A stretch of 17,432 nt of DNA from a virus (taxonomy: Duplodnaviria > Heunggongvirae > Uroviricota > Caudoviricetes): IMG/VR virus record IMGVR_UViG_3300011888_000045, positions 1 to 17,432 of that record. One strand, written 5' to 3'. Every line of letters begins with the position of its first letter. The stretch's first letter is position 1. A program made the translations under genes and the position numbers. Positions 2,411-2,465 of the stretch are shown piece by piece. Under the pieces are notes generated by a model. That model made no database searches. It was not told the DNA's origin and saw only the letters and a program-made list of their open reading frames with translations.

Positions 2411-2465
2411 CTCTTTTTTTGCCCCTTTTTTGCCCCTTTTGCAGCGCTTTGCCCCATTTTTGCCA
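2411..2465 (+). repeat. Helically phased T-tract/GCCCC direct repeats (about 5 units, 10-11 bp period)
   Basis: CTCTTTTTTTGCCCCTTTTTTGCCCCTTTTGCAGCGCTTTGCCCCATTTTTGCC; GCCCC at 2421, 2432 and 2451 with T-runs between. Confidence 0.5.

Follow-up and report, generated by a model that had tools for sequence, protein, structure and literature searches.

TGCCCC repeats in the int-distal arm of a Rac-like prophage as probable arm-type sites of the integrase IntR

The T-tract/TGCCCC repeats at the int-distal end of a Rac-like prophage are likely to be the distal-arm arm-type binding sites of the Rac integrase IntR, arranged as two pairs. We reached this assignment by comparing related elements and by eliminating the excisionase XisR. 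A first-pass annotation had offered arm-type integrase sites as one of several readings, and this is the one that the comparisons favor: the motif occurs on both arms of the attachment site, IntR has a predicted arm-binding domain, the repeats are conserved across genera and attB sites, and the motif changes in a distant relative. Such a lambda-style arrangement has apparently not previously been mapped for the IntR integrase family.

The repeat block in a Rac-type attachment site

The DNA analyzed (the window, 17,432 nucleotides) consists of E. coli ompN-uspF and the int-distal end of a full-length Rac-like prophage lying in the 5' end of ttcA. Positions 1500-2700 are 100% identical to E. coli EC93 over the 1.2 kb compared, and next to ompN-uspF comes a Rac-like prophage of ~53 kb, with xisR-intR-ttcA at its far end. 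In the orientation of the window, the prophage carries sitABCD, a diguanylate cyclase gene, tfaR, stfR, lom and gpJ, then tail, head and terminase genes, and continues through lysis, replication and immunity genes to recET, xisR and intR, with host ttcA next. In strains that have no prophage, uspF directly adjoins ttcA, and identity with the window ends at 2312. The att core was delimited by comparing the window with the int-side junction and the empty site, and the attP annotated in phage Rac-SA53 is the same 26 bp. This core contains no TGCCCC; the repeat motif thus differs from core-type sequence. Elsewhere in the window, the gene at 6747-7913, annotated as a sensor-domain diguanylate cyclase and situated between sitD and the tail-fiber assembly gene, is a second cargo gene of this prophage end; a 19-bp tandem repeat (CTGACAGTTTCCCATTAAT, 2.3 copies) lies within the gpJ tail-tip gene at 13086-13129; and runs of ten Ns at 4209-4218 (inside sitB) and 6147-6156 (just past sitD), which look like masking, break the ORF calls.

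Beyond the core lies a conserved arm (Table 1) that 1529 of 5426 complete E. coli genomes carry, with 82-100% identity. The repeats form its outer 50 bp, 102-153 bp past the core and at the prophage end far from int, so that the earlier placement of the block about 100 bp inside the phage side holds: it starts 102 bp past the end of the core. K-12 Rac has the same arm and repeats and departs from the window right after TTTTTGCCA. Because all lineages diverge directly after 2465, where the last unit ends, we read this position as the point where the functional attP probably ends. The locus from the 221-kb plasmid pE401651_221 (L101) also has 44 bp of the arm, with units 1 and 2, at 2501-2544; this stretch lies among IS elements, with a frameshifted DUF4376 gene ~540 bp away, and was probably left behind by the end of a Rac-type prophage.

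Table 1. Features of the attachment region, in window coordinates
Feature	Position	Strand	Basis or conservation
5' ttcA fragment ("ttcC" remnant), uspF side, ATG at 2263	2263..2312	+	ttcA start of empty-site strain equals window 2263
26-bp att core, AAGAAAGAACAATACAACCTGAACAA	2287..2312	+	identical in attL, attR and attB
Int-distal phage arm of attP, conserved 153-bp module, counterpart of lambda P arm	2313..2465	+	conservation; intact attP of L069
Inverted near-copy of the motif adjoining the core, ATTTTTGCCCT on minus strand	2316..2326	-	kept in E. coli Rac variants, not in Mangrovibacter
Candidate IHF site TTTCAATGTGTTA, between core and repeats	2361..2373	+	motif match, one mismatch to WATCAANNNNTTR
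Proposed arm-type site 1 (first of pair 1), TTTTTTTGCCCC	2414..2425	+	GCCCC kept in most E. coli variants; (A/G)TGCCC(T/C) in relatives
Proposed arm-type site 2 (second of pair 1), TTTTTTGCCCC	2426..2436	+	TTTTTGCC invariant in 10/10 aligned sequences, including PHB10
Degenerate unit TTTTGCAGCGC	2437..2447	+	GCAGCA, GCGGCT or ACGGCG in E. coli variants; unrelated in other genera (TATTTCGCA, TATATGTAA, TTTCAGTGGA)
Proposed arm-type site 3 (first of pair 2), TTTGCCCC	2448..2455	+	invariant wherever the sequence reaches here
Proposed arm-type site 4 (second of pair 2), ATTTTTGCCA	2456..2465	+	kept in E. coli; TTTGCCCC in PHB10, Enterobacter, Mangrovibacter and Erwinia
sitABCD cassette junction within TTTGCCA(T) microhomology	2459..2466	+	homology to K-12 Rac runs to 2465, that to plasmid sit from 2459 on

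Positions 2410-2469 read actc TTTTTTTGCCCC TTTTTTGCCCC TTTTGCAGCGC TTTGCCCC A TTTTTGCCA tcaa. The first-pass annotation had described about five copies of TTTT(T)GCCCC recurring at 10-11 bp. That count is fair, but the copies are unequal: the block at 2414-2465 holds three exact copies of TTTGCCCC, one degenerate unit in the middle and a last unit that ends in CCA (TTTGCCA), and its TGC triplets start at 2420, 2431, 2440, 2450 and 2461, giving spacings of 11, 9, 10 and 11 bp. The T-tracts are 3-7 bases long and phased at 9-11 bp. Tandem Repeats Finder reported period-11 arrays at 2415-2440 (2.4 copies, 100% match) and 2416-2464 (4.8 copies, 72% match).

Such a density of copies was not seen in simulated sequence. 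Four TTTGCC and three TTTGCCCC fall inside 60 bp of the window, whereas in 300 first-order Markov simulations of the window TTTGCC never exceeded two copies and TTTGCCCC never exceeded one. Across 58 kb of prophage and flanks, counting either strand, TTTGCCCC occurs six times, five of them in the two att arms. No ORF of at least 60 amino acids spans the repeats, no promoter-like or terminator-like site was found inside them, and an Rfam search of 2100-2750 returned no family at E values up to 1.

When E. coli variants of 82-100% identity were aligned with the corresponding sequence of phage PHB10, units 2 and 4 were invariant and unit 3 varied freely. Because its sequence is free to vary among relatives, the middle unit is best read as a variable one-turn spacer between two pairs of putative sites. 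The idea that the inverted near-copy of the motif adjoining the core is a conserved additional arm site is not supported, since its orientation differs or it is absent in other genera: at the same place PHB10 and Enterobacter have TTTTGCCAA in forward orientation.

Immediately outside the arm lies the sitABCD cassette. On plasmids, sit operons match the window (85% identity) from 2459 onward only and have no repeats upstream; from this limit and the end of K-12 Rac homology it follows that the cassette was joined to the arm within TTTGCCA, just outside the last site. Two sequences upstream of sitA are conserved in the plasmid sit copy: GCTAATGATAATCATTTTC at 2573-2600, which we take to resemble a Fur box, and the perfect palindrome AAACATAGC-n4-GCTATGTTT at 2618-2639, presumably resembling an MntR operator, which a terminator scan scored as terminator-like. 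The block lies ~150-200 bp upstream of these sequences, and curved DNA upstream of promoters can in general modulate transcription, so that it could be imagined as a curved upstream activator or silencer of the sitABCD promoter, much as the first-pass annotation had suggested. This is highly improbable: the block is present in the arm of K-12 Rac and of PHB10, both of which lack a sit operon, and plasmid sit operons share the promoter region from 2459 on and have no repeats upstream of it. Together, these comparisons place the repeats in the phage attachment site and not in the sit regulatory region.

Recurrence of the motif on both arms and in related elements

Arm-type sites of the lambda kind lie on both sides of the core, and a search for the motif at the opposite prophage end had been proposed in the first-pass annotation. 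There, right after the intR stop codon, two copies are found at a spacing of 11 bp (TTGCAAAG TTTGCCCCCAA TTTGCCCCATT); they are oriented like the window repeats and lie ~45 bp short of the core. Scanning IMG/VR with IntR yielded 283 relatives, from which 80 loci were kept; these are near-identical Rac copies, most ending at the int stop. One IMG/VR contig (L069) is an excised junction in which both arms are joined through the core as an intact attP. The motif is therefore present in both attP arms and outside the core, and the arms are joined in the intact attP of L069 and of PHB10. Phage records of 99% identity were also considered as sources of an intact attP and were rejected as prophage excerpts.

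To follow the motif across related elements, we retrieved IntR homologue loci at decreasing identity. In 7/7 relatives with 59-100% integrase identity, two copies of TGCCC(C/T) lie exactly 11 bp apart, 7-15 bp past the int stop. They comprise Rac of EC93 (100%), Pluralibacter (69%), Klebsiella (67%) and Dickeya (62%), all adjoining ttcA; the free phage PHB10 (69%), which has a ttcA-like core; and Yersinia (61%) and Serratia (59%), whose elements are not in ttcA. The int-side pairs of Yersinia and Serratia have almost no T-tract, yet TGCCC(C/T) at 11 bp is kept. The layout is not uniform in the family, as integrases of 53-55% identity lack a pair right after the int stop: this was the case in Shimwellia (55%), which is not next to ttcA, and in the ~60 bp covered in Enterobacter ludwigii (53%).

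The distal arm is conserved in a similar way. PHB10, an isolated free phage with an intact attP, has aGTGCCCt TTTTTTTGCCCC tatttcgca TTTTTGCCCC taaa TTTGCCCC at ~110 bp past its core. The same organization of pair, spacer and pair is common to PHB10, four Enterobacter species, Mangrovibacter plantisponsor and an Erwinia metagenome-assembled genome (MAG), in the form (A/G)TGCCC(T/C), TTTTTTGCCCC, a variable spacer of 9-10 nt, TTTTTGCCCC and TTTGCCCC, sometimes with a fifth, weak copy after it. Where a core is recognizable the array lies ~110 bp from it, amid diverged sequence; the Erwinia MAG has no recognizable ttcA core near its array. An exact-pattern scan of a species-level genome collection gave 48 matches; the 10 in Enterobacterales were used, and the other 38, in unrelated phyla, were taken as chance. 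Among the relatives compared, the TGCCCC hexamer is better conserved than the T-run, which in several is replaced by other bases (ATATGCCCC, CATGATGCCCC). The motif is thus present in related att arms across genera and at different attB sites; a comparison with related phages had been proposed in the first-pass annotation.

Tandem repeats of this kind may also arise by replication slippage, and the number of copies does vary: E. coli 23CRST038 (L099, ~500-520) has one 11-bp unit fewer than the window, with one TTTTTTGCCCC against two, and Escherichia ruysiae (L141, 3202-3236) has one extra, with three. That the block is a functionless neutral microsatellite is nonetheless extremely improbable. 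Of the 1513 E. coli copies with at least 80% of the arm covered, nearly all align along its entire 153 bp, the arrangement of pair, spacer and pair is kept in Enterobacter, Mangrovibacter and Erwinia amid diverged sequence, and the hexamer recurs on the other arm. Slippage, which the first-pass annotation had named as evidence against a function if strain-specific and unconserved, does occur, in two genomes, but it is rare and does not account for the conservation across genera.

More distant integrases provide a further comparison. At ~43% identity to IntR, integrases of the 933W-like phage phi367 and of Fraca, FSL SP-016 and CobraSix are accompanied by TGCCCC pairs spaced at 11 bp, 150-200 bp downstream of int. 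By contrast, in phage phiCTX, whose integrase is 31% identical, the tRNA-derived core is flanked on each side by GTTCCCA repeated in tandem at 11 bp (~2020-2045 and ~2190-2215 of locus L154); these repeats are likely the phiCTX arm-type sites. A shared architecture with a changed motif is as expected if the arm-binding domain reads the repeats.

Two of these loci merit separate description. In phi367 (L153, ~2255-2305), there are two TGCCCC/GCGCCCC pairs, with 11 bp within and 20 bp between pairs, ~150-200 bp past an integrase gene of the Stx-phage type; this suggests that Stx phages may use the same arm code. In Fraca (L150) and FSL SP-016 (L152), the TGCCCC pair is immediately preceded by a direct repeat of TTAACGAACTT (two copies, ~135-155 bp past the int stop); a second protein, for example an excisionase, may bind there.

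XisR, IHF and DNA curvature

XisR is a member of DUF1233, a family of putative excisionases, and the repeats have features expected of excisionase sites. Like the lambda Xis sites X1, X1.5 and X2, they are tandem direct repeats at helical spacing on the int-distal arm and are associated with DNA bending (predicted for the Rac repeats), and XisR might polymerize on them as lambda Xis does on its tandem sites. Lambda's sites, however, lie on one arm and are bound by the excisionase, whereas the Rac motif is on both arms, which is typical of Int arm sites rather than Xis sites. In addition, the motif is kept across integrase relatives, and the distant phiCTX integrase goes with a different motif. 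Gel-shift experiments are also informative: XisR shifts AttR, a probe of 294 bp, and leaves AttM, a probe of 291 bp, unshifted (Liu et al. 2015). By primer mapping, the AttR probe spans bacterial flank, core and the whole arm, so that the fragment bound by XisR does include the repeats. The AttM probe corresponds to 4815-5105 of the K-12 locus (L003), starts at the equivalent of 2313 and likewise holds every repeat. Since AttM was not shifted, the repeats alone are not XisR sites, and we regard their being the sites of this excisionase as very unlikely. The proposal that they serve as Xis or recombination-directionality sites was accordingly set aside, given the negative gel shift on a probe that contains the whole block and the presence of the motif on both arms. 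Because AttR is bound and AttM is not, the XisR determinant must include the core or the bacterial (ttcC) side, both within the AttR-specific part of the probe (equivalent to 2189-2312), or straddle 2313. This is unusual for an excisionase.

Binding of IHF has been mapped in vivo at Rac attL, where a peak lies on a consensus between the int-side repeats and the core (Kasho et al. 2021). In the window, the IHF-like matches nearest the repeats are at 2272-2284 and 2361-2373. The CAATnnnnTTA of the latter is kept in PHB10 (AATCAATTAGTTA), Enterobacter and Mangrovibacter amid diverged sequence, a weak hint that 2361-2373 may be an IHF site, given that IHF matches are not enriched across the window. 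The repeats themselves, which had been suggested as possible IHF sites, do not resemble the consensus WATCAANNNNTTR, and the IHF-like site at 2361-2373 is separate from them.

Curvature was predicted with three dinucleotide wedge models. All three reproduced, as a model result, the intrinsic curvature that had been proposed from the phased T-tracts: across the 17.4-kb window the block ranks first or second among predicted curvature peaks, with 30-38 degrees per 30 bp where the median is ~8, at or above the 99th percentile, and the equivalent blocks of PHB10, Enterobacter, Mangrovibacter and Erwinia are predicted to reach at least the 99th percentile of their own loci. Such values in five Rac-type lineages, with T-tracts phased at 9-11 bp, could be taken to mean that the block is purely architectural, as curved DNA or a site for a nucleoid protein of the H-NS or Fis type, and makes no contact with the integrase. 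We consider this unlikely. The most conserved part of the block is the G+C hexamer TGCCCC rather than the T-run; the Yersinia and Serratia int-side pairs retain TGCCC(C/T) at 11 bp with nearly no T-tract; and curvature alone does not require an identical hexamer on both arms. Since the hexamer is more conserved than the T-run, predicted curvature is regarded as an added property of the sites and not as their sole function.

IntR and a model of the Rac attP

IntR has a domain suited to reading such sites. Residues 5-69 match the Pfam family Arm-DNA-bind_2 (PF12167, formerly DUF3596) with E = 1.2e-25 and 89.7 bits against a cutoff of 22, and C-terminal of this lies the Phage_integrase tyrosine recombinase catalytic domain. 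DUF3596 integrases form the "IntBPP-1" subgroup, whose members have been called putative integrases and include those of Stx2a phage and Gifsy-2 (Smyshlyaev et al. 2021, PMC8138268). IntR resembles this subgroup in carrying PF12167, its defining domain, and the 933W-like and Fels-1 integrases are ~43% identical to IntR. Whereas the subgroup study defines no arm sites, the present analysis proposes a motif for the enterobacterial members. In the searchable literature we found no IntR binding or mutational data and no description of arm sites for Rac or DUF3596 integrases, and for Rac attP just the 26-bp core.

From these observations a model can be drawn in which IntR acts as a heterobivalent tyrosine recombinase. 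The distal arm would present two pairs of sites with the core motif (T/A)TGCCCC, ~11 bp apart within a pair and separated by a one-turn spacer. The N-terminal arm-binding domain of IntR would hold these distal sites and the matching pair downstream of intR, while recombination at the 26-bp core, in the 5' end of ttcA, would fall to its C-terminal domains. An intasome would form as the arms are folded by DNA bending between arm and core, to which both IHF and the intrinsic curvature of the phased T-tracts would contribute. We infer that IntR binds the sites, that integration or excision needs them and that the curvature is relevant. Some features fit the assignment to IntR less well: site 4 (TTTGCCA) and the inverted copy near the core deviate from the consensus, the T-tracts could have been selected for bending instead of recognition, and the Shimwellia and Enterobacter ludwigii integrases are without a pair right after the int stop.

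The proposed attP resembles that of lambda (P1, P2 and P'1-P'3) in several respects. Both have short repeats, unlike the core in sequence, on the two arms; the copies stand in tandem, spaced by roughly one turn of the helix, 50-150 bp from the core; and the integrase has a separate N-terminal arm-binding domain. In lambda, IHF-type bending sites lie between arm and core, and they may do so here. The arm at the end opposite int borders tail-fiber and moron genes in each. The differences concern the letters and the packing. The lambda arm-site motif is C/AAGTCACTAT, whereas the Rac-type motif is TGCCCC after a T-run; the arm-binding domain of IntR is of family PF12167, which is not that of lambda; and the Rac distal arm has four close-packed predicted sites in two pairs, whereas lambda has two, split by an IHF site. 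Mycobacteriophage L5 attP (P1/P2 and P4/P5) also has its arm sites in adjacent pairs, and the N-domain of its integrase is thought to bridge arm and core. The L5 integrase subgroup and motif are unrelated to those of Rac, and its bending protein is mIHF, not IHF.

A wider code is plausible for many enterobacterial DUF3596 integrases, judging from the few loci at which TGCCCC pairs were seen. In its full form this idea is tentative: possibly, enterobacterial DUF3596 (IntBPP-1) integrases, among them the ones of 933W-type Shiga-toxin phages, have TGCCCC pairs 11 bp apart as a common arm-site code, and in the Rac lineage the sites are joined with phased T-tracts, giving a pre-bent distal arm that in part takes the place of a host bending protein.

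Few cryptic prophages have been studied as much as Rac, whose excision influences both biofilm formation and stress responses. The functional attP proposed here would be ~250 bp long, from the intR stop codon to window position 2465. It would also explain the position of the sit virulence and fitness operon, which lies just outside the last proposed arm site, where insertion would spare attP. As conventional lambda-type biology, the arrangement would fill a gap and overturn nothing. (T/A)TGCCCC becomes a candidate recognition motif for a subgroup that includes the Stx-phage integrases; if the wider code is true, the hexamer rule would let both the limits of attP and the architecture of its arms be predicted for a large subgroup of integrases that is of medical relevance and biochemically uncharacterized.
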